NCBI GenBank assembly: GCA_964486045.1 | Contig: CAZALK010000023.1 | Location: 38,231 to 65,487 of the forward strand | Length of the DNA stretch: 27,257 bases | Origin: an uncultured archaeon | GTDB lineage: Archaea; Asgardarchaeota; Lokiarchaeia; Sigyniarchaeales; SOKP01 | Direction: 5' to 3' | Shown here: positions 11,253 through 26,203 of the stretch, one piece after another | How the letters are laid out: each line of letters starts with the position of its first letter | How positions within the stretch are numbered: the stretch's first letter is position 1 | Position numbers and translations under genes: made by a program | The notes under the pieces: model-generated | What the model was told of the DNA's origin: nothing | The model's input: only the letters and a program-made list of their open reading frames with translations | The model's database searches: none

Positions 11253-13532
11253 ATGAGTGAAATGACAGACCTTAAACTATTTGTTGATGCAAACAACGAA
11301 GTAGAAGATAAAGTACTAATTTGTCAATCAAATGCAGACAAATTAGGAGTCAAAAATGGAGATACAGTAGAAGTAATAAACGTTGACCACAATTTGAAAA
11401 AATTTGCTCAAGTGGAGATATCAAATACCATGTTAGATTTTGCTGGACAATTCGCAAAAAACATCCTTGATGACCTTCAATTTTCTGGGGTAGAATTAAC
11501 GATTCGGAAAGCCAGTGATGCTGCTACACTTACTCCAACAGTAAGGATCCCCAAAGTCCCCCCAGCACAAACAGCACCAGCACCGACAGAACATTCAAAC
11601 TTATCACCATTACCTACACCTCCTCCCGATGTACAACTATCTCAACCCGTCTCACCACCTTTTACTACTCCTGAACCAGTACCACAACCTCAACCCGTCT
11701 CACCACCTTTTACTACTCCTGAACCAGTGCCACAACCTCAACCCGCCTCATCACCAGTTACCACTCCTGAACCGGTACCACAACCTACACCACCACTACA
11801 ACCTACACCAACACTACAACCTACACCAACACCACAACCTACACCACCACCACCATCAGCGCCTTTAGCACAACCCTCTTTATCTCCTTTACCCTCACCA
11901 CCACCCCAACCTGCTCCAATAGATATTCCACCTTCTCCAGTAACACAAAATATATCTGAACCTTCAGCCCCAGAAGACCCATACCCAAACAAAATCGATG
12001 TTAATGTTCTACAGGGTCAAAAACGTGGAATAATCCTTAAACCTGTTTTAGATAATAATATTGAGGGTGGAAGAGTGCAGATCAGTGAAGGTGTTCTTCA
12101 ACAACTAGGTCTTGGACAGGGTATGCTACTAGGGTGGGAAGATCCATTAACAAGAGCAATGGGTTCAGCGCGAATTGATGCAACAAACATTATTCCGAAT
12201 GAAATAAAGATGAGTTTTGATACTTATGAGGACACAAATATTAAAGCAGAACAAATAGTTGTATACTCAACAGAACCACCTATTGAAAAAGCTTCTGAAA
12301 TGATGTTAGAAGTTGAGTCCCAACCCAATTTAATGGGATATGCTTTAGTTAGCCCACGAACTCAACATTCTCTTTCAATTAAAACGGAAGATATTCTTGC
12401 TTTTGAAGATGAGCTGACTGGGGCTGTGGGTGCAGCAAAAGTAGAGATTATGGAAGATTCATCTGATAATGTAATAATTATTGATAGTGAAGTTTTAGAA
12501 GCCTCTGGCATAGGTAGTTTTGAAGTAAAAGTCTCCAAAAACCAGAGGTCAATTATTCCCTTACAGAGTATTACACTTGGGATATCACCGATATCTGGGG
12601 AAAATATGTGGGAGATTATAAGTACTGCTAGAGAGAATGTTGACTCATTAAAAGGGTGGATTTCAAATTATGTCATTTTTAAGGGCATAAAACTAAGATG
12701 GAATGCTGTAAATATCGCCTGTTCAATTCTTGATACTGTACCCGACTTGGTTGGGGATATTTTTGCGAAAGTTACCGAAAATACAACACTTTCTTTAAGT
12801 CCGATGGGTTTAATTCCCTTTAATGCAATCTTAGTAATTGATATAAGCAGAAGCATGATGGCTCGGGATGTACTAGTCACTAACATCGCCCCCGCAATAG
12901 AAGGAATTAAAGCCGCAATGGAATCAAGGGAAATTCAGGAATTTTTAAAACACTTCAAAGATGGGGTTAACATACCACGTAGGATATCTGCAGCTTTTGC
13001 CGCAGTCTTATTTTTGAGTGAAAAAGTTGGTAGGGGATTCGGAGAAAAAGTCTCCATAATTCGCTTCGCGGATGAGGCGCAGGTACTCCCCTTTGGTAAT
13101 TCATATTATATGGATTCTGCAAGTGGTAAGAAGGGAATTCTTGAGGAGGCCGCCCGTATGATTGTAGATCGTGTAGGAAATAGTTATGGTCAAGCTACTC
13201 AATTAGGTGCTGCCATGCGATCAGCACATCAAGTATTAGATAACTTTCAAAATATGAATCCAGACCAGCCAACGATGATTATACTACTAACAGATGGTTT
13301 AGGGACAGATGGTGACGCTTTCATCAATGAGATTAAGAAATTTTCAGAAAATCCCAATGTTGTAATTTACATAGTTGGATTAGGTAACCCCGATGATGAG
13401 TTAATGACTCGCGCTGCTGCTCTGTGTGGAGGAGAATACTTTAAACCAGAGGATGCTGGAGAGCTTTTAATCTGGTACTCAAAACGAGCACGGGATCTCA
13501 CAGTAAAACTAAAAGCTCACAAAGTCGAATAA
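11253..13532 (+). CDS. Multidomain protein: Cdc48-N-like double-psi barrel repeats, Pro-rich linker and C-terminal vWA domain
   Basis: Three related segments (ADKLGVKNGDTVEV, LQQLGLGQGMLLGWEDPLT, QHSLSIKTEDILAFEDELT). MIDAS motif DISRS, then ATQLG, LLTDG, IYIVGLG and LCGGEYF. Confidence 0.85.
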   Translation: MSEMTDLKLFVDANNEVEDKVLICQSNADKLGVKNGDTVEVINVDHNLKKFAQVEISNTMLDFAGQFAKNILDDLQFSGVELTIRKASDAATLTPTVRIPKVPPAQTAPAPTEHSNLSPLPTPPPDVQLSQPVSPPFTTPEPVPQPQPVSPPFTTPEPVPQPQPASSPVTTPEPVPQPTPPLQPTPTLQPTPTPQPTPPPPSAPLAQPSLSPLPSPPPQPAPIDIPPSPVTQNISEPSAPEDPYPNKIDVNVLQGQKRGIILKPVLDNNIEGGRVQISEGVLQQLGLGQGMLLGWEDPLTRAMGSARIDATNIIPNEIKMSFDTYEDTNIKAEQIVVYSTEPPIEKASEMMLEVESQPNLMGYALVSPRTQHSLSIKTEDILAFEDELTGAVGAAKVEIMEDSSDNVIIIDSEVLEASGIGSFEVKVSKNQRSIIPLQSITLGISPISGENMWEIISTARENVDSLKGWISNYVIFKGIKLRWNAVNIACSILDTVPDLVGDIFAKVTENTTLSLSPMGLIPFNAILVIDISRSMMARDVLVTNIAPAIEGIKAAMESREIQEFLKHFKDGVNIPRRISAAFAAVLFLSEKVGRGFGEKVSIIRFADEAQVLPFGNSYYMDSASGKKGILEEAARMIVDRVGNSYGQATQLGAAMRSAHQVLDNFQNMNPDQPTMIILLTDGLGTDGDAFINEIKKFSENPNVVIYIVGLGNPDDELMTRAAALCGGEYFKPEDAGELLIWYSKRARDLTVKLKAHKVE
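11641..11855 (+). repeat. Coding tandem repeats: 3 x 48 bp (QPVSPPFTTPEPVPQP) then ~4 x 18 bp (PTPPLQ-like)
   Basis: 48-bp units start at 11641, 11689 and 11737; 18-bp units start at 11785, 11803, 11821 and 11839. Confidence 0.92.
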
Positions 13533-13703
13533 AAATCTTTTTGTACTTCTCTCTTTTTCACTTCTTATGATTGCAAAAAAGAATTAAAGAAAATTATATA
13601 ACTCTATTAGTTCATATACTAAACAAGTTATCTATTATATATATTAAGACTTCTTTACAGAAATTTAATTGCATTTTGTAAGAAATGAAGTACATGAATA
13701 ATA

Positions 13704-14558
13704 ATGAAAAAATTTAAAGTTAACACCTATCTAATGTTAAAACTGGAAAATCGAGAAACTAACATCTATATCAATGAAAAGATGTTTATGCAGTGCAAAT
13801 ACTTACTATTAGACATTCCAATACAAAAAATTAGCACATTTGATGAGATTGAGTCTATTGATGAAGCTGCTGAAAGACTAGATACATCTATGGAAGAGGG
13901 GAACGAGATTAAGTCAGAAATCTCTCCAGAAACAGAATTTTGGGGTCATTGCTCTAATTTGCAAGTGTGGTATGAACATGGCTATAATACCAATCTTTTA
14001 CATAGTAATTTGGCTTTCCCTTTACTTAAAAAGCTCGTAGATGCAGGAGATTCGTTGGCTGAAACGGTATTCAAGGAGGAGATTGTTAAAAGGATGAAAA
14101 TGGGATATGGAGCTACTTTTCTTTACCTCTTTGACGAGAAATACCATCACTATCTCAAAAGAGTGGAATTTATTGAAAACATTCTAAATCCCCATGATGT
14201 TGGAATATTAAAGGAGATTGAAAATTTATTAAATGTGGAATACGGATTAATAGATTCTCTTGAGTCTTTAAAATATGGGCTTCCAGATAAATATGTAGAA
14301 CATTTTGCAATTAAAGAAGGATTTATCACAGAATTGGAATTAGTGTTTAGAAAACCTTATCAGTTCCCTAAAAATATAAAAAACCTTTCTCGACTTAGAA
14401 CACTTTACGTCCATATTAGTGATATGGTTCTTATTAGGGAATTCAAACAATTATTAAAATCGATACCAATCGATAAGTTACATTCACTTGAATTATTAGA
14501 AGTTAATGGGGGCAAAATAGAAGACCTTACTAAATTTATAGAAAGTCTAATCGAATAA
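13704..14558 (+). CDS. Lokiarchaeal expanded-family protein (often LRR-associated) with one degenerate LRR-like stretch
   Basis: FKVNTYLMLKLE..TNIYIN..CKYLLL..SIDEAAE..EFWGHCSNLQVW..LLHSNLAFPLLKKL signature; FPKNIKNLSRLRTLYV near the C-terminus. Confidence 0.75.
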   Translation: MKKFKVNTYLMLKLENRETNIYINEKMFMQCKYLLLDIPIQKISTFDEIESIDEAAERLDTSMEEGNEIKSEISPETEFWGHCSNLQVWYEHGYNTNLLHSNLAFPLLKKLVDAGDSLAETVFKEEIVKRMKMGYGATFLYLFDEKYHHYLKRVEFIENILNPHDVGILKEIENLLNVEYGLIDSLESLKYGLPDKYVEHFAIKEGFITELELVFRKPYQFPKNIKNLSRLRTLYVHISDMVLIREFKQLLKSIPIDKLHSLELLEVNGGKIEDLTKFIESLIE

Positions 14559-14580
14559 ATTTTAAAAAAAGGAAAAAAAA

Positions 14581-15765
14581 TTATCTTAGCCTAAGCAATC
14601 TTCCTATATACACTACCATTGGATCCATACTTGTCCTTAAATAGTTCATATAAATGGTGCCAAATTGTGAACGCCCTCCAGAGGTCATAGATATCTTAAA
14701 CTTAAAGGCATCATTCCAATCCTGATTATGTTCATCGATATTACTATAAAATGTGATCTGATTTCCAGGATTATCTGGATCAGAGAATTTTTCGTAATAT
14801 TTCAAAACATATTGTCGACCTGTACCGGATGCAGTGTAAATTTGTGAACTTTTCAGATACCCTTGATAAGTTACAAAAAAATAGGCTCGATGCTGGTCAA
14901 ACGTGCTCCCTACAGGCTCAACAGAAAACCCAATTGGAATACCATGTAGTAAGAATGCGATATGTTCTAAAACATACATTGAATTTTCATAAACGGGAGT
15001 TCCTGGATTTCTTAGGTCTATTATAAAAGCATTAGGTTCTTGTGTAGGATCACTAACAGCTGGAAGAAGATATTCTCTTTTGATGTTGGCTTTAAAACCC
15101 TCCTTGGCACCTAAAGGAACTGCGAGTATTTTAGCGTATCCACCCACCAATTGAATTTCTTTTGCTAAATTGTTGGTAACACTTTTAACGTTTATATCTT
15201 TTATTGTATTGAACTTTTGTTGTTGAATCATTGCTTTTATTGTCTTTCCAACAGCTCCCCAAATGGTTATATCCTGCCCTATAAAATCTTCGTAATAAAT
15301 AGGTATTTTATAATTGACTCTTGTATTCGCAGGATTTGAGTATGGAAGTTCCAACATAGTAGTTGCTGCTTTAGAACCTATAAAACGCTCGAAGATTCCT
15401 CTTAATTGACTTTCAGCCTTTTCACTTGAAAGACTTGACCGAATATAAACTATAGATTGAGTAAGGAGCATTTGTTTTTGAGCTGAAGTGAGAGAATTAT
15501 CACTTAAGATATGATCGGTTACTATCTTTTCAAACTTCGTTATCAGATTACTCTGTTTCTTCATAAAAATTCCAGCAACATCAGCCTGAACCCTTGTGTC
15601 TTGAACAGTTGATAGTGGGGTTGTGCGGAATCTTTTTCCATGAATATCTGCAAATGAACTTGCTAACCCATAGGCAATTTCCCATGAAAGAGTTCGAGAG
15701 TCTCCCGCTGTTATTGGGGCAGTTAAAAGATTGGGAAATAAATGAGGAAATAATGGGTGAGATAT
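14581..15765 (-). CDS. Hypothetical protein (394 aa from a probable ATA start; 327 aa from ATG 15564)
   Basis: Frame stays open upstream of ATG 15564 until TGA at 15787-15789. AAGGAG at 15778-15783 precedes ATA at 15765. Confidence 0.7.
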   Translation of the reverse strand: MSHPLFPHLFPNLLTAPITAGDSRTLSWEIAYGLASSFADIHGKRFRTTPLSTVQDTRVQADVAGIFMKKQSNLITKFEKIVTDHILSDNSLTSAQKQMLLTQSIVYIRSSLSSEKAESQLRGIFERFIGSKAATTMLELPYSNPANTRVNYKIPIYYEDFIGQDITIWGAVGKTIKAMIQQQKFNTIKDINVKSVTNNLAKEIQLVGGYAKILAVPLGAKEGFKANIKREYLLPAVSDPTQEPNAFIIDLRNPGTPVYENSMYVLEHIAFLLHGIPIGFSVEPVGSTFDQHRAYFFVTYQGYLKSSQIYTASGTGRQYVLKYYEKFSDPDNPGNQITFYSNIDEHNQDWNDAFKFKISMTSGGRSQFGTIYMNYLRTSMDPMVVYIGRLLRLR

Positions 15766-15824
15766 AACGAAACTTTTCTCCTTTTTTCATTTTTTCTTTA
15801 TATTTATTCGATTTAGCTTGATGT

Positions 15825-16574
15825 ATGGCTGGAGATTTATTTATTACCTCATTGGTGATCTTTCTTTTTGTTCTAGTGATAGGATATGTAGTACAGACAA
15901 TTCTTGAGGGAAGTGATAGGGGTCCATTTACCACAATAATAAATATTCTAGCATTTATTGGCGTATATATACATGAAATTTCTCATGCGGTGTTAGCTAT
16001 TTTCTCTGGAGCTCCCGTAAAAAGTATTAAGGTTAGGTTAAGGGATGAAGACACGGGAAGAATCGCCCCTCATGGGGAAATAAACACCAGAAGACCCTAC
16101 CAAATGACCTTCCTTCAATCACTTTTAACCAGCTTTGGTCCGGTAATACTCGGTACATGGATATTTTATTTTGCGATGCAATTTGCGTTCGATTTGTTAG
16201 TTGATCCCCTTTTTCGTATAATATCGGGATTAATAGCACTTTCAGTCCTTATCGCCTCGACACCCTCTCCCCAAGATCTCAGGTTAATAATCGTTTATTT
16301 TAGTTTCGATCCTCGGCATTCATGTTACCAAATTATAGTGTTAACAGCCTCTATTTTACTCTCATGGACAATCGTGGTAGCATTTCACATTGTTTTTCCC
16401 ATTGAATTTTTTTATTACGGTCTCATTATCTTTTGGTATTTCACTCTCAAATACTCATTACTCCTGATTAAATGGGGTTTTAACAAGATTCGTACTCGGT
16501 TCGGGAAAGAAACAAATAGATCACGGTTTAGACGATCTTCCAGGAGAAAATATACATCTTCACAATTTAAATAA
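15825..16574 (+). CDS. M50-like intramembrane zinc metallopeptidase
   Basis: HEISH (HExxH) in hydrophobic context, FGP motif, PSPQD third-ligand motif, several TM segments. Confidence 0.8.
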   Translation: MAGDLFITSLVIFLFVLVIGYVVQTILEGSDRGPFTTIINILAFIGVYIHEISHAVLAIFSGAPVKSIKVRLRDEDTGRIAPHGEINTRRPYQMTFLQSLLTSFGPVILGTWIFYFAMQFAFDLLVDPLFRIISGLIALSVLIASTPSPQDLRLIIVYFSFDPRHSCYQIIVLTASILLSWTIVVAFHIVFPIEFFYYGLIIFWYFTLKYSLLLIKWGFNKIRTRFGKETNRSRFRRSSRRKYTSSQFK

Positions 16575-16594
16575 TAAAAAGTAGGTGAACGAAA

Positions 16595-16927
16595 ATAAAA
16601 GGATTAATTTTGGTAGTACTAGCTATTGGGTTTTTCATGTTTTATCAGCAGAGTCCGGTGTATGCGATAATAATAATTGGAATCTTTATCGCAGGGTATA
16701 TTTTTGTTAAATCACGAAAATCTGGTTCAGGTATTGGTGGGTTTTTAAAAGGGAAGTCGGCTCAACCGAATAATCATATGGATGATCTTATAACTTTGAT
16801 AATGCTCCAGCAATTGACTAACAATACAAACTCCCGTCTGGATAGCATTGAGGAACGCGATAATAATGATCATGAAAAGCATATTGAAAAAATAAAGCAA
16901 GAAACTCTCGCCCTTTTAGATGAGTAA
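16595..16927 (+). CDS. Small two-TM membrane protein; probable ATA start
   Basis: AGGTGA at 16583-16588, then in-frame ATA AAA GGA TTA ATT TTG. Its stop overlaps the next ATG. Confidence 0.7.
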   Translation: MKGLILVVLAIGFFMFYQQSPVYAIIIIGIFIAGYIFVKSRKSGSGIGGFLKGKSAQPNNHMDDLITLIMLQQLTNNTNSRLDSIEERDNNDHEKHIEKIKQETLALLDE

Positions 16928-17195
16928 AACAATGGATACAATGTTGCTTCAAGAATCGATTATAACAAGTATTCACGAATTGTTTCAAAAAAATACTTTA
17001 ATCTCTATATCAGGAAAAGCTGGAACAGGCAAAACATCTCTCTCGTTATATTTAATAGGGAATTTTCTTACATCTACCCAACCTTATGAGAGTTTATATT
17101 ACTCTTGTAGAAGAATTAATTTACGCCAAATTTTATCGAAAAAGAGATCCACTAAAAGTGTAAAATATTATCAAGCAATAGGGATAGTAAAGTAG
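16920..17195 (+). pseudogene. Truncated RecA/RadB/KaiC-like P-loop ATPase (N-terminal fragment)
   Basis: LISISGKAGTGKTSLSL Walker A motif. No Walker B; after about 17095 the frame runs into unrelated sequence and overlaps the kinase 3' end. Confidence 0.7.
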
Positions 17196-19237
17196 AATGT
17201 GCTTCCTTTGTTAGAACCATCTGATTCTAACCAGATTTTACCACCATAAGACTCTACAATTTTTTTTGAAATATACAGACCAAGACCAGTCCCATCAATC
17301 CCTAAATCAATCCCTTGACCATAACGCTCGATTTTTCCAAAACGGACAAAAACCCTCTCTTTCTGATCCTCCGTAAACCCAATCCCATCATCGGTCACAG
17401 AAATCAACACAAAATCATCTTTTATGTCTGTTTTTACTACAATTTTTCCATTTGGGGGGGTATACTTAATTGCATTAGATAGTAAATTGGAAAGAACGTC
17501 GTGAATTTCTTCTTTTTCAATATTTGCGTACAATTGGTCATGTATATTTAACTTAATAGATTGTTTCCTTTTTTTTGCCATAGATTCCATTTCGTTCACA
17601 CAATATTTGATAAGAAATGGTAAATCCTCTTTTTGTAAATTTGATTTTAATTCAATCGACTCTAATCGAGAGGATTTCAACAAATCATTAATGATATATT
17701 GAAGTCGTTCGCAACCATGACTTATCTCATTTAAGTGTGAAATAATTTCTGGATCCAGTTGATCAGTATATAATCTTAAAATGAGGTCAGAGAAACCTTT
17801 AATTGAAATGAGGGGTGTTTTTAATTCATGAGAAGCTCTTCTTAAAAATTCGGATTTCAATTGATTTAATTTTTGTAATTCAATTTCTGCCATTCTTTCT
17901 TTAGTAATATCTACGATTGTAGCAAAAATTGTAGGTTTCTCCTGAAACTGAAACATCTTAGAATAAACTTCTATCCATTTGATTTCTCCTGAGCTAGTAA
18001 TTATTCTAAGAGGATCACTAGTTCTATCTCCAAATACTCCTTCCTCCCTTTTATTAAATCGTTTTACCGCAATATCTCGATCTTCTGGGTGAATAAGTTT
18101 AAAAATATCAGTAACATTAATGACTTTTAGTTCTTCAGACGTATATCCGAATACTCTGTATATGGCATTGTTTAAATAGATAATGCGGCTACCTTGAATT
18201 ATTACAAAACCAGCAGAGGATTGTTCGGCAATTGTTCTAAATTTCTCTTCGGATTCTTTCAATTCTTGTGCCATTTGTTTGCGGTTAGTAATATCTATTA
18301 ATGAAATTAAATCGGCATTTCTCCCTTCATATATGAAAGATTTTGAAAAAATTTCAAGCCAAATGATATCTCCTCTCTTTTTTACGCCACGAAATTCGTA
18401 TCGATTTATAACATCTTCAATTCCTTTCTGTTTCTTTTCAGCTTGATTCTTTACGAATTCTAAATCTTCAGGGTGTACCATCTTCAAATAACCTCCCAAT
18501 TCCCAATTCAAAATTTCTTCTACGGAATAACCAAAAATTTTGCCAAATTGCTGATTCACGTATTTATAATGATCATCTTGTAAAATCCCTATCCCCGTTA
18601 GCGATTGTTCCGCGAGTACTTTAAATTGTTTGTTAGATTCTGCTAATCTTTGCATAGCTACTTTTATTTCGAAAAATTTTTTTAATCGCTTTCCTAAATC
18701 GTCTAGTAAACTTTCTTCCTCTTTAAGAAAGGGTTTATCTTCAAGGTAATAAACTTCAATCATCATCACTTTTTCATTTACAATAACATTAGTTGACAAT
18801 TTCCATTCAGTTTCTTTGAAATTACTTGTTTTGAATTCTTTATTATCAAAATATATTCTCGCACATGTTATTTCTGGAAATTGCAATGCAGGGAGGATCA
18901 AATCTAAGGTCCCTTGTAATATTGCTTCTTGTGATATTTCTGGATTCTCAACAAGCTTAGACAACCCATATAAACAAGTAAGTTCCTTAACACGTTCTCC
19001 TAAATTATGTTCAGATTCTATTAATTTTTGTACTGATTTTATTTGTTGTTTACTGTAATACTGAAGAACCACGCTTAAAGTGAAGATAATGCCAAATACA
19101 ACAAATCGAATCAAAAATTCATGAAACTCATTTGAAAATCTATGGAGATTAAAGAATATTAATTCAAATATGATACCCAGCGTCACAATTATCAGACCCG
19201 CCATTATTATCTTATATTTGGCAAGAAAGCTTTTCAT
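17171..19237 (-). CDS. Membrane-anchored PAS-PAS sensor histidine kinase
   Basis: Two TMs, ERVKELTCLY segment, two PAS domains (VHPED/IHPED, DIT), ASHELKTPL H-box, NLLSNAIKYT, DDGIG, GTGLGL. True start is probably ATG 19237 (MKSFLAK); the track start 19267 lies inside the inserted element. Confidence 0.93.
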   Translation of the reverse strand: MKSFLAKYKIIMAGLIIVTLGIIFELIFFNLHRFSNEFHEFLIRFVVFGIIFTLSVVLQYYSKQQIKSVQKLIESEHNLGERVKELTCLYGLSKLVENPEISQEAILQGTLDLILPALQFPEITCARIYFDNKEFKTSNFKETEWKLSTNVIVNEKVMMIEVYYLEDKPFLKEEESLLDDLGKRLKKFFEIKVAMQRLAESNKQFKVLAEQSLTGIGILQDDHYKYVNQQFGKIFGYSVEEILNWELGGYLKMVHPEDLEFVKNQAEKKQKGIEDVINRYEFRGVKKRGDIIWLEIFSKSFIYEGRNADLISLIDITNRKQMAQELKESEEKFRTIAEQSSAGFVIIQGSRIIYLNNAIYRVFGYTSEELKVINVTDIFKLIHPEDRDIAVKRFNKREEGVFGDRTSDPLRIITSSGEIKWIEVYSKMFQFQEKPTIFATIVDITKERMAEIELQKLNQLKSEFLRRASHELKTPLISIKGFSDLILRLYTDQLDPEIISHLNEISHGCERLQYIINDLLKSSRLESIELKSNLQKEDLPFLIKYCVNEMESMAKKRKQSIKLNIHDQLYANIEKEEIHDVLSNLLSNAIKYTPPNGKIVVKTDIKDDFVLISVTDDGIGFTEDQKERVFVRFGKIERYGQGIDLGIDGTGLGLYISKKIVESYGGKIWLESDGSNKGSTFYFTIPIA

Positions 19238-19250
19238 ATTTTTATATAAA

Positions 19251-20750
19251 AAACTTTCTATATACAATAATTTATAGATTGATAGCTGAGTAAAAAATTT
19301 TTTCCCAGCTTTTAAAAATTAAATCTTAAAATTTAGGAAAGTATAAAAGATTTCAGTAAAACCGAGTCTTAAACAACTCATTTTAGCTATTAAAAATAAA
19401 AAGAGAATAAAAAAATTATAACTTTTTTAGGATTTTTTTCATTTGTTCTTCAAATTTATCAAGTCTTAAGCTTAAATTAGCATTTTCTTTTACGGCTATT
19501 TCATTTTGTTCTGTTAATTTTGCTATTTCAGTTTTTAATTTAATTATTACTTCATTTGTCTTATTTAAAATTATGCAATCAACACAGATTTCTTTTTCTA
19601 CTCTGAGCCATTTGGTATAATACCATTCAAAGTTTTTAAGACTTGTTATATAAGCAGAATCTCTATAATTCGGTTCTCTTCCTTCTAAGTGTTGATTAAA
19701 TCTGTCATCAGATTCTTCCATATTAGCAATTGTATTAGTAAAATACTTTCTAAATGCATGAGTTTTTAGATTTCCATTAAATCCAAGTTTTTTAGAAATA
19801 GCTTTAACTCTGGCTAAATAATCAATACCTCTAATTCTTTTATTCTTTCTACTTAAAAAAAGTTTAGTTAAATCTATTTCTTCCATTTTATCTTTTGGAT
19901 AAATAGATGCTAATAATTCAGATAATTCAGTTGTAAAAAATAGAAAGTTAATAATAACTTTTTCTTTATGAGAAATAAAGTCTCTAATGAAATAATGTTT
20001 TTTATATTGCTCAATTTTATACTTTCCATTTGTTAGTTCATCTAAAACATCACTTATCCTTAATCCTGTTTGAGTTTCAAATTTATTGATTAAGTTATAT
20101 TGTCGTGATTCTAATAAATTTTGAATTTGTTTAATCATATCTTTATCTAAGTATATTTCTTCTTTATTAGCACCACTTTTCCTTGCTTTCATTCCATAAC
20201 TAATATTAACTCCTCTATCACTGAAAAAACCTTTAATTCTGCTTTGAATCATATTTCTGATTGATACATCACTTGGTCTTTTTCTAAAACCTAATTTCTT
20301 GATTTCTTCTTCTTCAGCATTATATAAGAAAGTAAGATATTTCTTTAATCTTGCATTTCTTCCATCTATATCTTCAGTTAATAACTCACTTGGATTATCA
20401 GTTTTATTAAAATCACAGTATTGTTGTAAATAACCTATATAACTTGTAAAACTAAATTTAGCAGGGTCTTTTCCTTCTTCAGTGTATTGGTCAATCATAT
20501 TCCTAATCCAAGATTGAATATCCTTGTTATCATAGATTGAATATAATTCTTTCCATCCTTTAATGTGTTTACCTTTTGCATTAGTATAACCATTGATTTT
20601 ATTTGTTCCAAATATTTTTTCGAAGTTTATTTCTTGATCAGTTATAATTTCTAACATTTTTCTTGATCAACTCCTTTTTAATTTTAGTTTGATTCATTAA
20701 GAATAATGAAAAAATTTAGACTTATAAATTTATGTATATACACAAACTTT
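19251..20750 (-). mobile_element. Minimal tyrosine-recombinase-only integrative element (1493 bp core to core)
   Basis: 7-bp direct core AAACTTT at 19251-19257 and 20744-20750. Inner inverted arms at 19259-19276 and 20723-20740 match 16/18. The outer arms rejoin into a perfect palindrome. Confidence 0.7.
19416..20657 (-). CDS. Tyrosine recombinase/integrase with C-terminal coiled coil
   Basis: TGLRISD (R), HAFRK (HxxR), QHLEGR, DSAY (catalytic Y). SD AAGGAG upstream. Confidence 0.9.
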   Translation of the reverse strand: MLEIITDQEINFEKIFGTNKINGYTNAKGKHIKGWKELYSIYDNKDIQSWIRNMIDQYTEEGKDPAKFSFTSYIGYLQQYCDFNKTDNPSELLTEDIDGRNARLKKYLTFLYNAEEEEIKKLGFRKRPSDVSIRNMIQSRIKGFFSDRGVNISYGMKARKSGANKEEIYLDKDMIKQIQNLLESRQYNLINKFETQTGLRISDVLDELTNGKYKIEQYKKHYFIRDFISHKEKVIINFLFFTTELSELLASIYPKDKMEEIDLTKLFLSRKNKRIRGIDYLARVKAISKKLGFNGNLKTHAFRKYFTNTIANMEESDDRFNQHLEGREPNYRDSAYITSLKNFEWYYTKWLRVEKEICVDCIILNKTNEVIIKLKTEIAKLTEQNEIAVKENANLSLRLDKFEEQMKKILKKL

Positions 20751-20784
20751 TATATAAAAATTTATATTTAACTTTTTACTAATA

Positions 20785-21027
20785 GGAAATGTCTATCTAT
20801 TCATGATTGGTGTATCACGAGAATTTCAAGGAAAAGGTTTTGGGGGAAAATTATTAAGAGCAGTTATAGAAAAAGCTGATACAGAAAGAAAACCTATGTA
20901 TTTGGGGACTCAAAATGAAAAGAATGTTTCCCTCTATGAAAAGTATGGATTTTATGTTTATAAAAAAATAAATCTTCCAGAACCATTGAATTTACCAATG
21001 TGGTTAATAGTTCGAGATGATCGATAA
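20785..21027 (+). pseudogene. C-terminal remnant of a GNAT acetyltransferase
   Basis: YLFMIGVSREFQGKGFGGKLL (motif A) and NVSLYEKYGF. The N-terminal half is absent. Confidence 0.75.
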
Positions 21028-21135
21028 ATTTGAGTGCTTCGTCTCCATATTCTAAATTTGAAATAAGTGTGAATTACAACTATTAAAAGTTTATTATGTA
21101 TTGAATTTAATATAGGTTAAAGTGGAGGAAGAGGG

Positions 21136-21651
21136 GTGCGAAATTCATATAAAAATTTATTAATTATTTATCTCCCTACTTCAAAACTCCTAGCAACCAA
21201 TTTGAAGTGTTCTTTTACAAATTTTGTAATCTCAAAAAACCTTTCTTGGAATTTACTTAGTTATATAAAAGCCAAAACAACCTTTTTTGAAACATATTCA
21301 AGGGAAGATTTTTCATTTTCTAGGTATAAACATAGACGTTTAACAGTGCGAATTCTGTTATTATTTTGGTTTTTATTATTAGGTACGCTACTTTTTTTAC
21401 CTTCATTGGTCAAGGGAAATTTTATATTTTATTTGGGACTGGGAGGATGGTTAATTGTCGGTTTGATATCTCTTATATTTTACATAAGGTTCAAGAAATT
21501 AAAAAAGAGAATCGTAAAAAACATAAACTTTCCGTATTATAGAAGAGCGATAAACTTTGAAAAATTAAAGCATTTTTTTAAAATAGCAGGAGCCACAGTC
21601 TGGTTTCAAGGTCAATTTATGTTTGAACATAAACCACTGGATGAGATGTAG
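21136..21651 (+). CDS. Hypothetical two-TM membrane protein, possibly decayed
   Basis: GGAGG before a GTG start; two hydrophobic segments; ends just before the duplicated vWA tail. Confidence 0.45.
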   Translation: MRNSYKNLLIIYLPTSKLLATNLKCSFTNFVISKNLSWNLLSYIKAKTTFFETYSREDFSFSRYKHRRLTVRILLLFWFLLLGTLLFLPSLVKGNFIFYLGLGGWLIVGLISLIFYIRFKKLKKRIVKNINFPYYRRAINFEKLKHFFKIAGATVWFQGQFMFEHKPLDEM

Positions 21652-21700
21652 ATTCAGAGGTATTGTTAATGTTCTGGAAGGAACAAAATTACGATTTCAG

Positions 21701-21889
21701 TTTTCGGAAAATCCAAATGTAGTTATCTACATAGTTGGATTAGGAAATCCTGATGATGAATTAATGACACGTGCTGCTACTTTATGCGGTGGGGAGTATT
21801 TTAAGCCAGAAGATGCAGGAGAACTTTTAATTTGGTATTCAAAACGAGCTAGAGATCTCACAGTAAAATTGAAGGCTCATAAAGAATAA
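21701..21889 (+). pseudogene. Orphan 3' fragment of the vWA gene (right island boundary)
   Basis: FSENPNVVIYIVGLGNPDD...KLKAHKE; 32 differences over 183 nt versus 13341-13523 by manual count, nearly all synonymous. Confidence 0.92.
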
Positions 21890-21989
21890 AAAACGAGTTT
21901 CATTTTTTCTCTTTATAATAAATTTCTTGTTAATCATTCTTTCTAATTCAAGATCTATCTCCATCCTTCAATTGCATGCTTGCTAAACT

Positions 21990-22877
21990 CTAGATCCATT
22001 TTCTGATGCTTTTCTGAATTTTAAGCTCCCCAAGGTTTTTGAATATCTCACCCTCGTGAAGCTTCTCGTACTGAGGGAACCGTCCACATAAGGGGCTGTC
22101 CCTGAAACTTTTCCAAACAGGTGAGATACCAAAAGATCCATTCTGACGAATCCAAGCAACCTTATCTAAATCTATGACTTCTGTCATTACTTCCTCATGA
22201 GTACCCACTGCTTGGAGCATTCTTCCTTCCGGATCAGTAAAAAGAGACCTACCTCCTCCTGTCTTGCTGATAATATTGGTGTTCAATACATAACACTGAT
22301 GCATAATAGCTTGGGCCTGAGTCAATATTATTTCTGCATCACGATCTGGGGTATTGGTTGCTGATAGTTGTAGAATTACTTCTGCTCCCATCCAGGTAAG
22401 TGTACGGAAAAGTTCTGGGAACCATAGGTCATAACATATTACGAGCCCCACCTTGGTAATTCCGGGAATCTCAAAAGTTACAAAATCAGTACCATAAGCA
22501 GTGTCTTCGAATGGCATCCAGGGGTATATTTTCCTGTACTTTGCTATAATTTTTCCTTTCGGATTGAAAACGATGGCAGTATTGTAGATGTCGGATCCAT
22601 CAATTTCAAGGAAGGAACCTGGTACTAGCCAACAACCAACTTCCTTAGCAATATCAGAAAGGCTCTCTGTTAATTCACAGGGAATATTGATTGCTAAATC
22701 TTTCCAGTCTCCCTTACCAAAAGGCTGAAGTAACAACTCTCCCGTGAACATTAGATCAACCCAAGGGAACTGCGCCTTCGTGATCCTAACGGTTTTTTCA
22801 AAGTTCTCAAAAGTGACCGAAGGATTTTCTTGGTCTTTCTTTAGTTGTAGACCTGCAACTCCAAGTTTTCGCGACAT
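21990..22877 (-). CDS. Carbon-nitrogen hydrolase (nitrilase superfamily)
   Basis: E-K-C triad: MFTGEL, KYRKIYPW, ICYDLWFPE. Confidence 0.92.
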   Translation of the reverse strand: MSRKLGVAGLQLKKDQENPSVTFENFEKTVRITKAQFPWVDLMFTGELLLQPFGKGDWKDLAINIPCELTESLSDIAKEVGCWLVPGSFLEIDGSDIYNTAIVFNPKGKIIAKYRKIYPWMPFEDTAYGTDFVTFEIPGITKVGLVICYDLWFPELFRTLTWMGAEVILQLSATNTPDRDAEIILTQAQAIMHQCYVLNTNIISKTGGGRSLFTDPEGRMLQAVGTHEEVMTEVIDLDKVAWIRQNGSFGISPVWKSFRDSPLCGRFPQYEKLHEGEIFKNLGELKIQKSIRKWI

Positions 22878-23109
22878 CTGTTCAACTCTAAACCTTTTTT
22901 ATGATAAATGTTTTCGAATTATTATTTATTATATTAGGTTGATTTGTTATATATATAAAAATATTGAATTTCTTGAGTGATGAGATTTCATTAATATTAT
23001 TAATAATAATTTTTTTAATATTTATAAGAAAATCACACTCATGAAATAATTCTTGATATTACTTCATAAGATAGTGAACTAAGGAATCACATAATTCATT
23101 TTTGTTGAT

Positions 23110-23307
23110 TTGCTATATAAAAAAACTAGTTCATATAGTTATGAACAATACCAATCCGCAATCAAAAAGTTAAAAACATTTATTCTTAAGTACACAGGCA
23201 ACGTTTACACCCCACTAATTAAAAAGTATAGATCTCTAAAAGACGATGTTAATTCACCGTTAGAGCAGTTTTGTTTTACCGTCGTGGATGCAATCAATAC
23301 CAGTTAG
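23110..23307 (+). pseudogene. 5' half of a ~126-aa hypothetical gene split by the 2.16 kb insert
   Basis: Ends ...SPLEQFCFTVVDAINT and stops just after repeat copy 1; joins in frame with 25457-25646. Confidence 0.75.
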
Positions 23308-23415
23308 AGTTCTTGAAGAAGAAAGTAAATAAATCTTAAATTCTTTTTTTTTACTTTTTTTACCTTTATTCTATAAATATAAAATAACCTAATTTATCAG
23401 ATATGTATAGTAAAG

Positions 23416-23691
23416 ATGATTACCAAGAAAATGAAAGAATTAGAAGATTTAACTGAAACAGAAAAAGCTGTTTTTTTGGCTTGTTGTGATGCAAATAATT
23501 TTAGTTTAAGATCTCATGTTCCAATTGAAGCAATTGCAAAAAGAATACAAGATTATGTTTCAGGGAGATATTTCAATAAAGCTATAAGGGTATTACTTTC
23601 TAATGGTTTTATTAGAAAACATCCGACTAAAGGCAAAACAACTTACGAATTAACGCGAAATGGATGGAAAGAAGGATTTAAATTAAAATAA
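23416..23691 (+). CDS. Small winged-helix DNA-binding protein
   Basis: LTETEKAVFLA...IEAIAKRI...AIRVLLSNGFIRKH..TYELTRNG pattern. Confidence 0.7.
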   Translation: MITKKMKELEDLTETEKAVFLACCDANNFSLRSHVPIEAIAKRIQDYVSGRYFNKAIRVLLSNGFIRKHPTKGKTTYELTRNGWKEGFKLK

Positions 23692-23744
23692 TATTTTTTA
23701 ATAAATCATTTTAAATATCTTTTTTGACCATACAAAATATTTTG

Positions 23745-23774
23745 CTTCGCGAAGTTTCGCGAAACATTTATATA
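23745..23774 (+). promoter_or_regulatory. Twin palindromic operator (CTTCGCGAAG / GTTTCGCGAAAC) next to a TATA-like TTTATATA
   Basis: Two perfect GC-rich palindromes sharing base 23754 in very AT-rich intergenic DNA, upstream of a wHTH gene. Confidence 0.55.
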
Positions 23775-23821
23775 TTTTCTTAATTATATTAATATTGAGA
23801 AAAATCAAAAAGTGACTAAAA

Positions 23822-24106
23822 ATGTTAGAAAAAGCAAATAAAATCAGATTACTTAATTCTATGAAAAATAGGTATTTTTTGTATGAAATTATTAATAAGA
23901 AACCAGGATTAACGATTTATGACTTAACGAAAGAAGTAAATTGGACTTCTGGGAAAGTTAATCATTACATTCAGAAATTGATTAAAGATAGAGTAATCAA
24001 AAACTCTACTGAAATTGAAAATGGACGGGTTAAGAAACGATATTCTCCTGTGAGTTATAAAGAGTTCATTAATTGGGATGAAATGAACATAAGACCTGAA
24101 AAATAA
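23822..24106 (+). CDS. ArsR/MarR-like winged-helix transcription regulator
   Basis: LYEIINKKPGLTIYDLTKEVNWTSGKVNHYIQKLIKDRVI. Confidence 0.82.
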   Translation: MLEKANKIRLLNSMKNRYFLYEIINKKPGLTIYDLTKEVNWTSGKVNHYIQKLIKDRVIKNSTEIENGRVKKRYSPVSYKEFINWDEMNIRPEK

Positions 24107-24147
24107 TTCTTTTTATCTTTTTTTATTTTTGTAGAAAGCCTCGATTT

Positions 24148-24375
24148 ATAAGACGTTATATCTTAATAATTCTTGACACGATAAAAATTGAAGAAATTCT
24201 TGAGGGATTCTCTATTGAAGATGATGGTGTGCCCGATGAGAATGTTGTCTTTATTAGTGAAGAGGATGAGAGAATATTATACAACCAGCTCGAACATCTC
24301 TATAGTGAACTTATCATGATTCATAGACTTAAATTAAGTAAAATGCATTGCGAAAGTGGAAAATGCCATTATTAA
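24148..24375 (+). pseudogene. Acidic ORF remnant absent from the ORF track
   Basis: Open frame ...LDTIKIEEILEGFSIEDDGVPDENVVFISEEDERILYNQLEHLYSELIMIHRLKLSKMHCESGKCHY* with no canonical start at its 5' end. Confidence 0.45.
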
Positions 24376-24468
24376 TGAGATTTTTCTTATCTTAGCAATT
24401 ATTTTTTAGTATAAATTTAAATATAGACATTTTTATCAAATTCCTATTACGACAAAGAAATGATTTGA

Positions 24469-24996
24469 ATGAAAAATAAAAAAAATCTATTATATTTTGC
24501 TCTCTCCACTATTATTATCTTGAGTTTCTATAATTTCAGAGCATTGGCATTACCAAATCCAGATTATACTATTCAAATAGATGCTGGAAATTATTGGGTT
24601 CTATATAGTGATTTATCAAATGGTGATACTTGGAGTATTGAATTTGAAGTAACGGCAGGCGGGAATAAAGATATAACTGTATATGTTTTAGATGAAGAAA
24701 ATTATAATAATTTTGTAGCATTATTATCTTTTAGTTATTATAAGTATTATGAAAAATATCAGTCGGGCTCATTCGGTTTTACAGCTCCATCTTTTGATAC
24801 ATACTATATAGTATTTGATAATTCTTTCTCTATTATAACCGCAAAAACAGTTGAAATTAATTCTCAAATTAGTTATTATACTAGTGGTGGTGGTGGTGGT
24901 GGTGGTGGTAATATTCCAGGATATAATTTTATAATTATAATCGGCATTACAATTGGAATCAGCTTAATTTTAACCAAAAAGATAAAATACAAATAA
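24469..24996 (+). CDS. Exported surface protein: signal peptide, beta-sandwich (GOLD/emp24-like) domain, Gly8 linker, Loki-CTERM-like anchor
   Basis: N-terminal signal; SIEFEVTAGGNKDITVYVLD..YYIVFDNSFSIITAKTV; IPGYN followed by a TM and a basic tail. Confidence 0.8.
   Translation: MKNKKNLLYFALSTIIILSFYNFRALALPNPDYTIQIDAGNYWVLYSDLSNGDTWSIEFEVTAGGNKDITVYVLDEENYNNFVALLSFSYYKYYEKYQSGSFGFTAPSFDTYYIVFDNSFSIITAKTVEINSQISYYTSGGGGGGGGNIPGYNFIIIIGITIGISLILTKKIKYK
24886..24909 (+). repeat. (GGT)8 microsatellite encoding a poly-Gly linker
   Basis: Eight perfect units. Confidence 0.95.
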
Positions 24997-25125
24997 TTAT
25001 TTTTTACTTATTTTTTAGTTTTTGTTTTTTGTCGGTAATCCTTAAATCTTTTCTTATCTTTATTTTAATTATTATTCCACAGCTTTAGAATGAACAAATT
25101 AGAGAGATTTTTAGATGATTAGTAT

Positions 25126-25338
25126 ATGGAAGTAATAGAAACAATTTATCGGGGCTATGCTGATGATATTGAGGCGCATGTTTTTGAATGTGTCCATGAG
25201 AATCTAATAATTTGTTTTGAATATACTCCAAAATTTCTTGGCGAGATAGATACAACTCATTGGCTTTGGAAACTCAACGATACATATTTGGTTATAGATA
25301 ATATTGGCGAGTTTAATATTTGGATGGGGGGACGATGA
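25126..25338 (+). CDS. Small hypothetical protein
   Basis: 70-aa ATG ORF with plausible composition inside the insert. Confidence 0.5.
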   Translation: MEVIETIYRGYADDIEAHVFECVHENLIICFEYTPKFLGEIDTTHWLWKLNDTYLVIDNIGEFNIWMGGR

Positions 25339-25407
25339 GTGAATACTGAATTAAAAATAATGAAAGTCATAATCTTTTTCGAGCCTATTTTGATTTTGTC
25401 AATAGCT

Positions 25408-25646
25408 ATTCACCGTTAGAGCAGTTTTGTTTTATCGTTGTGGATGCAATCAATACAAAACTTGAAAAGGTTACAAAGAAGTTTGCTATGGATATTAACG
25501 AATTATATTTTGATGATGGTTTAGAACTTAGCATAACGGTTAAGAACAGTCTATTGAGTAAATTCCCAATTAGACACCTATATTTTGACGATTTGGACAC
25601 CAAGAACAAGAAAGTGATAATTCAGATCCTCAAAACCGAGTTCTGA
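25408..25646 (+). pseudogene. 3' half of the split hypothetical gene
   Basis: Starts in repeat copy 2 (SPLEQFCFIVVDAINTKLEK...). Confidence 0.75.
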
Positions 25647-25792
25647 TGATAAGTTCACTATCTAATGCACTTAATAGTTGTTAAAGGAAGTTAGACTTAA
25701 ATTCTTCTTTGATTTACAATTTTTCAAAAAAGCCTAATTTTATTATTTAGGAATTAGTTAATATTTATAGGATAAATTTAAGGTGTCAAAAA

Positions 25793-26203
25793 ATCACGAA
25801 AGATGTAAAAATCATTACTATTGACAATCGGGGAAGGATTGTCTTACCATTGGTGACACGAAAAAGCCTCGGGATAACTACAGATTCACAGTTAATGCTC
25901 GTTAGTGATTCGGAAGCAAAAGAAATACGGATAACACCAGTTGGAATCACAAAAGAAGAAAAACCTATCAAGTTTAAGATAACTATGAGTGATGAACCTG
26001 GTTCATTAGCCAAGATTGCTACAATTTTTGGAGATAATGGTATTTCTTTAATGTATGGGGAAAGTGTCATTATCGAAAAATCTAAAACTGCTATCTGGAC
26101 CGTAATTAGTCCAACTCCAAAACATATATCACTTGAAGAATTAAAAGAAAGCTTGATGAAAAGTGATAAAGCAGTTAATGTTGAAATTATACCTATTGAT
26201 TGA
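25793..26203 (+). CDS. AbrB/SpoVT-ACT domain transcription regulator; probable ATC start
   Basis: KIITIDNRGRIVLPLVTRKSLGI (AbrB) lies mostly upstream of the track start 25850. ITMSDEPGSLAKIATIF is an ACT motif. AGGTG at 25781-25785. Confidence 0.85.
   Translation: MTKDVKIITIDNRGRIVLPLVTRKSLGITTDSQLMLVSDSEAKEIRITPVGITKEEKPIKFKITMSDEPGSLAKIATIFGDNGISLMYGESVIIEKSKTAIWTVISPTPKHISLEELKESLMKSDKAVNVEIIPID

Follow-up and report, generated by a model that had tools for sequence, protein, structure and literature searches.

Two ends for one gene

How can one conserved gene come to have two ends? The question is posed by a stretch of 27,257 nucleotides (nt) from contig CAZALK010000023.1 (C23) of a Lokiarchaeial genome labeled G000. 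This whole stretch is our window, and coordinates given without another contig or locus label are positions within it. A gene encoding a protein with a C-terminal vWA domain is followed there by an orphan copy of its own 3′ end, and accessory genes fill the space between. We call the upstream copy, which the gene now uses, tail A, and the downstream copy tail B. On balance we lean toward an origin by import, in which DNA from a relative, anchored by homology in the end of the vWA gene and independent of any recombinase, would have delivered a replacement tail together with its cargo.

11253–13532, plus strand: vWA gene, 759 amino acids (aa), with a Pro-rich linker and a C-terminal vWA domain; tail A is its present end
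13341–13552, plus strand: tail A, the last 63 codons of the vWA gene and about 20 nt of trailer; coding copy 13341–13532
21701–21912, plus strand: tail B, the orphan copy of the vWA end; coding copy 21701–21889
13368–13384 and 21728–21744, no strand: the longest run identical in A and B, 17 nt

The Pfam matches of the vWA protein (VWA_2, 3.4e-9; VWA, 6.8e-8) span residues 526–735, and its gene is clustered with eukaryote-like genes for cytoskeleton proteins and GTPases. Two samples place it among its relatives: a search at the protein level in 41 genomes of the order, and one at the DNA level in all 54 genomes of the genus (G000 and 53 others). The first found the vWA orthologue as a single copy in 37 of the 41 genomes and a second tail in G000 only.

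The tails have 61 codons in common (21701–21883 in B), at an offset of exactly 8360 bp. Across these 183 nt they differ at 32 positions, which amount to 28 synonymous codon changes and one nonsynonymous change, Ala to Thr at codon 27; the C-termini read AHKVE in A and AHKE in B. Every detail of the original prediction on this point—the distance, the same 61 residues with one substitution, the 32 differences—was reproduced, and the longest exact match is indeed the 17-nt run that it had named. By blastn the tails match at 82% over 195 nt (E=1.7e-47), and tblastn found no further copies in G000. Similarity sets in sharply at 13341 and 21701, the preceding 120 nt being only 23% identical, and dies out about 20 nt past the stop codons. 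The resulting direct repeats (13341–13552 and 21701–21912; about 190–210 bp, 79–82% identical) thus duplicate the 3′ end of the target gene in the manner of attL and attR. Tail B lies inside an 88-aa open reading frame (ORF; 21623–21889), the part of which upstream of B is unrelated to vWA. As for the 17-nt run, we estimate that about one run of at least five unchanged codons is expected when 28 codons in 60 differ; its length is close to chance at such divergence, and it is therefore no evidence for a conserved crossover core.

Both tails come from working genes

The proportion of sites differing between A and B is 0.75 at synonymous and 0.007 at nonsynonymous positions. Had half of the 32 changes arisen in a pseudogene, the probability of seeing at most one replacement would, by our calculation, be about 2e-8; this figure, with the ratio of 28 synonymous to one nonsynonymous change, excludes a copy that had long been dead and decaying. 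The codon changes establish, at the level of sequence, that until they met each tail belonged to a working gene and was subject to purifying selection, as had been proposed for this locus at the outset.

The accompanying description of one tail as "synonymously recoded" does not survive comparison with the rest of the genus, where 23 ordinary orthologue pairs show 0–1 aa and 16–34 nt differences over the same stretch. The 28 differing codons of A and B also compare with 32 expected for independent draws from local codon usage. Judged by these sequences, the pattern is ordinary divergence between orthologues of different species, and special recoding is not needed to explain it. Selected synonymous recoding that would block recombination was rejected on the same comparison. 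A retro-copy of the 3′ end of an mRNA was also considered and rejected for vWA, the orphan being without neutral decay.

The block between the tails is an insertion

In the genus-wide DNA search, 48 of the 53 other genomes contain a match to the tail, one vWA tail apiece. Flanks were compared in seven same-genus relatives (loci L021–L025, L073 and L074). The last two loci belong to G097 and G098, the two closest relatives; G097 is the genome nearest to G000, with flanking proteins 82–89% identical. The following features of the region bear on the comparison.

13533–21700, no strand: inserted block between the tails, 8.2 kb, 30% G+C; missing behind vWA in the same-genus flanks examined
21990–22877, minus strand: carbon-nitrogen hydrolase gene (Pfam CN_hydrolase, 1.1e-30), in a slot flanked by the vWA end and the ACT promoter
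22927–23033, plus strand: native intergenic, promoter-like stretch, 77–92% identical to DNA behind vWA in relatives
25850–26203, plus strand: ACT-domain gene, the conserved downstream neighbor of vWA, syntenic in the seven relatives

The ACT gene follows vWA in all seven. It stands directly behind, within 150–300 bp, in five of them, while in G097 and G098 it comes after a slot gene of 1.2–1.5 kb that is different in each. An unoccupied site is thus present in related genomes, with vWA followed by ACT wherever flanks were checked and a single tail in all 48 matching genomes. Because relatives have one tail and ACT follows vWA, their sequences establish that the tail-bounded block was inserted in G000 and is lacking in every other sampled genome of the genus. 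This is, within the genus, the comparison of gene content downstream of vWA orthologues that the original prediction had proposed as its check.

How much was gained depends on the relative chosen. Against the five genomes with ACT directly behind vWA, the gain of G000 is about 12.2 kb and is made up of the 8.36-kb tail-bounded block, the hydrolase gene and a further 2.7 kb (23034–25739). The predicted island of 8.4 kb therefore stands as a tail-bounded block but not as the total gain relative to most of the genus. Since G097 and G098 hold other genes in the corresponding place, the hydrolase gene occupies a variable slot belonging to the native downstream context of tail B. The slot gene of G097 (L073:10367–11617) encodes a 306-aa secreted protein, and that of G098 (L074:8164–9626) a 401-aa Fe-S protein; a search behind both for decayed vWA tails gave only a weak 16-nt match of the vWA end, in G097. 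The suggestion that the vWA gene is an integration hotspot finds little in its favor, with a second tail in G000 only among the 54 genomes, although these two relatives do hold different slot genes behind vWA.

Several observations concern the region farther downstream. The promoter-like element upstream of ACT is doubled (22992–23032, and a degenerate copy at 25735–25775, 76% identical), its copies flanking the 2.7-kb second insertion. A multi-copy sequence of about 375 bp, unbroken at C10:118768–119142, C13:165463–165837 and C7:139278–139615, is split in the window (23146–25676). The splitting insert, nested in the 2.7-kb gain, measures 2.1 kb and is bounded by 49-nt direct repeats (23252–23300 and 25408–25456); it carries winged helix-turn-helix and GOLD-domain ORFs and is without a recombinase. 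Searches of the window for tRNA genes and Rfam families gave no matches.

Could the second tail be a product of assembly instead, with C23 a chimera of two co-occurring strains or species? G000 is a metagenome bin with 7.8% contamination, and a 378-bp stretch of the island is 99.2% identical to contig C3. Yet the tails share at most 17 nt, whereas contigs here join via 55-nt overlaps, and non-vWA DNA precedes tail B, so that B is truncated however the contig is joined. Both flanks are closest to G097 at similar identity, and G+C is even across the junctions. We regard a chimera as the least probable account of the locus.

Which tail is native?

Tail B is the nearer of the two to the closest relatives. 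It matches G097 at 158 of 183 positions and G098 at 154, as against 151 and 145 for tail A, and at the A/B-differing sites where G097 and G098 agree, 12 favor B and four favor A. Tail B also has the relatives' Thr at codon 27 and their C-terminus AHKE, AHKVE being unique to A. Across the genus, the best matches of B are 86% and 85% identical and that of A 83%. Private silent changes number twelve in A and four in B. From this proximity and the shared Thr and C-terminus, the native tail is probably B, which makes A the import; with no private amino-acid change, B was probably displaced recently. Tail A may come from an unsampled lineage outside the group of G000, G097 and G098, a placement to which few sites contribute. 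The proposal that a foreign lineage supplied one tail and displaced the other is thus supported, and the direction can probably be added to it. Two further properties were not decisive: G+C at third codon positions is 0.28 in A, 0.20 in B and 0.25–0.28 in the vWA body, and the trailers after both stops are T-rich, as in relatives.

Searches for the source of tail A and for other states of the locus were negative. Within the genus, tail A is matched at 83% identity at most, and no genome contains an island-like block. A degenerate 41-nt pattern fitting both tails, used to look for conspecific or free forms, had no matches in metagenome and viral contigs. A mosaic analysis for the crossover point found too few informative sites left of the 17-nt block.

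The position of B near the relatives bears on another explanation, namely that the second tail arose by an old duplication in situ—an insertion with long target duplication—and that B was retained by selection as an 88-aa protein. B does lie in an open 88-aa frame and shows no decay, and insertions of this kind are documented (PMC2853133) and common in G000. However, the synonymous sites have almost reached saturation (28 differing codons of 60, against the 32 expected for unrelated draws), and such an age predicts a second tail in G097 and G098, each of which has one. A duplication in situ also predicts that the gene-linked tail A should be closer to relatives, and it is B that is closer. A lone last strand and helix of the vWA fold is unlikely to work as a protein, and decay is seen in the remaining orphan tails of G000, whose synonymous to nonsynonymous ratios are about 1–2:1. 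Taken together, these points leave a duplication in situ quite improbable.

The cargo and an integrase

Between the tails lie genes of a mostly cellular character, together with a recombinase unit and fragments of other genes.

13704–14558, plus strand: LRR-family protein gene, about 50 copies in G000 by tblastn; no Pfam match
14581–15564, minus strand: 327-aa ORF, no match in Pfam, NCBIfam, PHROGs, PADLOC or Atlas
15781–17074, plus strand: block of ORFs of 249, 105 and 91 aa, paralogous to C1:196441–197723 at 75% nucleotide identity
17171–19267, minus strand: PAS/HisKA/HATPase histidine kinase, by Pfam
19238–20761, minus strand: tyrosine-recombinase mini-element, 1524 bp; gene 19416–20657
20796–21037, plus strand: 3′ fragment of a GNAT acetyltransferase gene, the last 74 codons and about 12 nt; matches the C-terminal half of Pfam GNAT
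21136–21651, plus strand: 3′ part of the gene for a 350-aa membrane protein, its last ~130 residues

The nearest Atlas cluster to the LRR-family ORF holds Promethearchaeota LRR proteins (score 0.92), a family expanded in Lokiarchaeia. The 91-aa ORF is the truncated head of a P-loop NTPase; its block has weak Pfam matches to M50B-like and nSTAND3 and was matched nowhere else in the genus. The last 100 codons of the kinase gene and 77 nt of its trailer (17094–17471) recur as an orphan at C3:625–1002, 99.2% identical, between a 244-aa ORF and an actin-like gene. Searches of the island ORFs against Pfam, NCBIfam, PHROGs, PADLOC and Atlas found no hallmark of a virus, plasmid, nuclease or defense system, and domain scans of the cargo beyond the recombinase of the mini-element found no recombinase, nuclease or other mobility domain.

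At the right end of the island, the GNAT fragment, the membrane-protein fragment and tail B form an array of three same-strand gene tails. Against an intact gene at C3:136690–137298, the GNAT fragment has 85% nucleotide identity with five synonymous and 22 nonsynonymous codon changes; with so few silent and so many replacement changes, it is evidently decaying. Residues 39–168 of the neighboring fragment match residues 220–349 of a homologue in G022 (L076:880–1932; 50% identity, E=1e-35), which is the only full-length homologue of the 350-aa protein.

An integrase within an island invites the view that it put the island there. This one encodes 413 aa (gene G+C 24.7%; Pfam Phage_integrase, 2.4e-7) with the catalytic Arg, HxxR and Tyr present, and its gene is bracketed by 39-nt inverted repeats (19238–19276 and 20723–20761). 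Nucleotide homology to the closest metagenomic copy (L085:9782–11251, 70% protein identity) starts exactly at 20760, and other copies from marine-sediment metagenomes, L096 among them, have the same border, so that the borders are conserved. In L085 the stretch 19240–19374 is located upstream of the equivalent of 20760; the unit is therefore circularly permuted there, as if a circle opened at different points. Many of its 47 database homologues are on contigs of 1.5–1.7 kb, several of 33 metagenome loci have the recombinase gene just 210–300 nt from a contig end, and one homologue is on a circular contig of 15 kb. No gene-tail repeats surround the homologues examined (four genomic loci, a paralogue on C25 and 16 metagenomic loci).

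With separate borders and no tail repeats at its homologues, the recombinase seems to have a palindromic, TATA-like site of its own and is probably not the island's inserter. An integrase whose cognate site is the vWA tail was looked for and not found in the island, the only integrase there having its own 39-nt inverted ends. On its borders and homologues, then, the integrase belongs to a self-contained mini-element and probably did not insert the island, and it serves as a warning that an integrase within an island need not belong to it.

Two side observations touch on recombinases elsewhere in G000. Around the paralogue of this integrase, C25:83–3466 and C18:90797–92096 look like inversion variants that share a 21-nt site in inverted orientation. 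Contig C29 (25965 bp) has a 935-bp terminal overlap, which indicates a circular element of about 25.0 kb, and encodes a 310-aa tyrosine recombinase (C29:17188–17754).

Orphan tails across the genome

Is the vWA locus alone in its genome? We scanned G000 with three 210-nt pieces, from the start, the middle and the end, of each of 2423 genes of at least 250 aa, taking as an orphan any copy without the rest of the gene and outside any long ORF. The scan returned 31 tails and 17 heads as orphans. Apart from vWA, at least seven loci (L118–L124, on contigs C13, C4, C15 (two), C1, C6 and C17) have the same arrangement of a gene, an insert of 0.6–8.5 kb and a same-strand orphan tail. Their repeats measure 130–324 nt and always end between −3 and +23 nt from the stop codon. 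The four inserts among them that are annotated contain no recombinase, their cargo including a PIN protein and an M28 peptidase, and no common motif was seen at the 5′ borders of the eight tail repeats in G000. At the acetyl-CoA synthetase locus, on C13, the DNA past the orphan tail is on another contig in G097 and in G002.

Most of these tail pairs have silent to replacement ratios of about 1–2:1, as expected for a decaying orphan. An orphan tail on a 28-kb contig (C28:17191–17399), belonging to a large gene at C1:696037–700491, is 80% identical to it, with 26 silent and nine replacement changes. By their ratios the vWA pair (28:1) and the C28 tail (26:9) stand out as apparent imports of a working tail, the latter as a candidate.

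We tentatively raise a broader reading, which we would not yet back over its alternatives: that Lokiarchaeia routinely gain accessory genes without a dedicated recombinase, from relatives' DNA that anchors in the last 130–310 bases of a conserved gene, brings a substitute for its tail and shifts the native one downstream. If so, the vWA locus would be the cleanest and most recent case, with neither tail decayed, and arrays of stranded tails would record earlier captures. Together with the other orphan tails of G000, it suggests that gene ends may be a general docking place for relatives' DNA, which bears on how the large, duplication-rich genomes of Asgard archaea grow.

How the block may have entered

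In the import that we favor, DNA of a related, unsampled Lokiarchaeial lineage would enter by recombination anchored in homology of the vWA tail. The incoming DNA would consist of the donor's own vWA 3′ end and about 8.2 kb of cellular-type cargo, and could arrive either on a circular fragment, through one homologous crossover, or as an island already flanked by tails in the donor, through a double crossover. The outcome would be a hybrid gene of native body and imported tail A, its vWA domain whole, with native tail B stranded 8.36 kb downstream. We infer the direction (A imported), the recency and the absence of a dedicated integrase.

The alternative of most weight is a site-specific integrative element of the type of e14 or phage 21 at icd, with an attP containing the target tail and an integrase that is resident, lost or supplied in trans (a CIME-like islet). 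Its appeal is plain: the direct repeats are exactly the gene end and its trailer, the right repeat has an intact tyrosine recombinase about 1 kb away, and the GNAT and 350-aa-protein tails between that recombinase and B resemble fossil attachment sites. G000 has four other tyrosine recombinases and the circular 25-kb element, a homologue of the recombinase is on the 15-kb circular contig, and archaeal elements do target the 3′ ends of protein genes (PMC6563490). Nevertheless, the recombinase unit is mobile alone, and neither its borders nor its palindromic ends are related to the vWA tail; its homologues lack gene-tail repeats at every locus examined, the identical block of 17 nt does not exceed what chance would give, and comparable islets elsewhere in G000 are without a recombinase. 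The analogy, which the original prediction had drawn, therefore stands in part: the tail-duplicating repeats and the empty site in relatives agree with it, whereas the sole integrase is a separate unit of 1.5 kb with its own palindromic sites.

Because the integrase is separate, similar islets have no recombinase and the identical block is about as long as chance allows, we favor the recombinase-independent routes and consider an e14-like element unlikely, if far from negligible. Several points weigh on the other side. Homologous recombination would be inefficient at 82% identity and with no identical run beyond 17 bases, and the tyrosine recombinase within the island, beside three same-strand tails, may be a leftover of site-specific integrations; the low identity of the anchor and the tail array beside the integrase are what keep the e14-like model alive. 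The 327-aa ORF and a 117-aa ORF, both without a recognized fold, could hide a recombinase or nuclease. The preference for B as native rests on 12 versus four sites and two amino-acid characters, and no donor, same-species empty site or circular form was found in these searches. Common to all three routes—e14-like, single crossover and double crossover—is that foreign DNA supplied A and displaced B.

Comparison with known systems

The closest precedent is bacterial. The account of e14 in PMC6379469 (citing Hill et al. 1989) describes an insert in the 3′ end of icd that supplies a substitute end and leaves a 163-bp pseudo-icd fragment on the far side. As with e14 and phage 21 at icd of Escherichia coli, the conserved vWA gene is kept whole, its old end is left behind and the copies differ mostly at silent sites. 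Unlike e14, which encodes the integrase for its site, the vWA island has a recombinase that is a separate mini-element, and its cargo is cellular in type, with no phage or plasmid genes.

Integration into a protein-coding gene rather than a tRNA gene, as the original prediction inferred for this locus, is already documented in archaea: 14 of 68 integrated elements in Thaumarchaeota sit in the 3′ ends of protein-coding genes (PMC6563490). The vWA locus is like these in its archaeal host, its gene-end target and the restored reading frame and stop, but theirs are short identical att sites, mostly below 25 bp, together with an element integrase, where the vWA repeat is about 190–210 bp at 82%. 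For the integrated elements described from Asgard archaea, the targets are tRNA genes or short sites (PMC11529989, PMC8813620).

Insertion with long target duplication, in which no recombinase takes part, has precedents as well (Furuta et al. 2010, PMC2853133). The likeness includes accessory genes between long direct repeats (more than 30 bp) that are single-copy in empty genomes, repeats that often overlap gene ends, and no linked mobility gene responsible. The two differ in that those repeats are near-identical copies of recipient DNA, whereas the vWA tails are orthologues from two lineages, 82.5% identical, with an undecayed orphan. The other tail loci of G000 do fit the pattern of a recipient copy with a decaying orphan.

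Replacement of a gene's tail is reported for homing-endonuclease inserts as well. In fungal mitochondrial mORFs and the WHO elements of yeast, a hybrid gene is reported to have a foreign C-terminal part, with the native part displaced downstream. At the vWA locus, domain scans of the island ORFs gave no LAGLIDADG, HNH, GIY-YIG or other nuclease domain, and what adjoins tail A is the LRR-family ORF; unlike in inserts of the mORF and WHO type, no endonuclease gene linked to the replacement tail was found. The locus differs from the C-terminal displacement arrays of rhs and cdiA too, in that its target is conserved, the tail is invariant in the genus and there is no polymorphic toxin gene.

The vWA locus thus belongs to a known class; what sets it apart there is a clean two-lineage signature and a nested mini-element. 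It offers a clean, datable case of an Asgard archaeon adding genes beside a conserved gene without breaking it.

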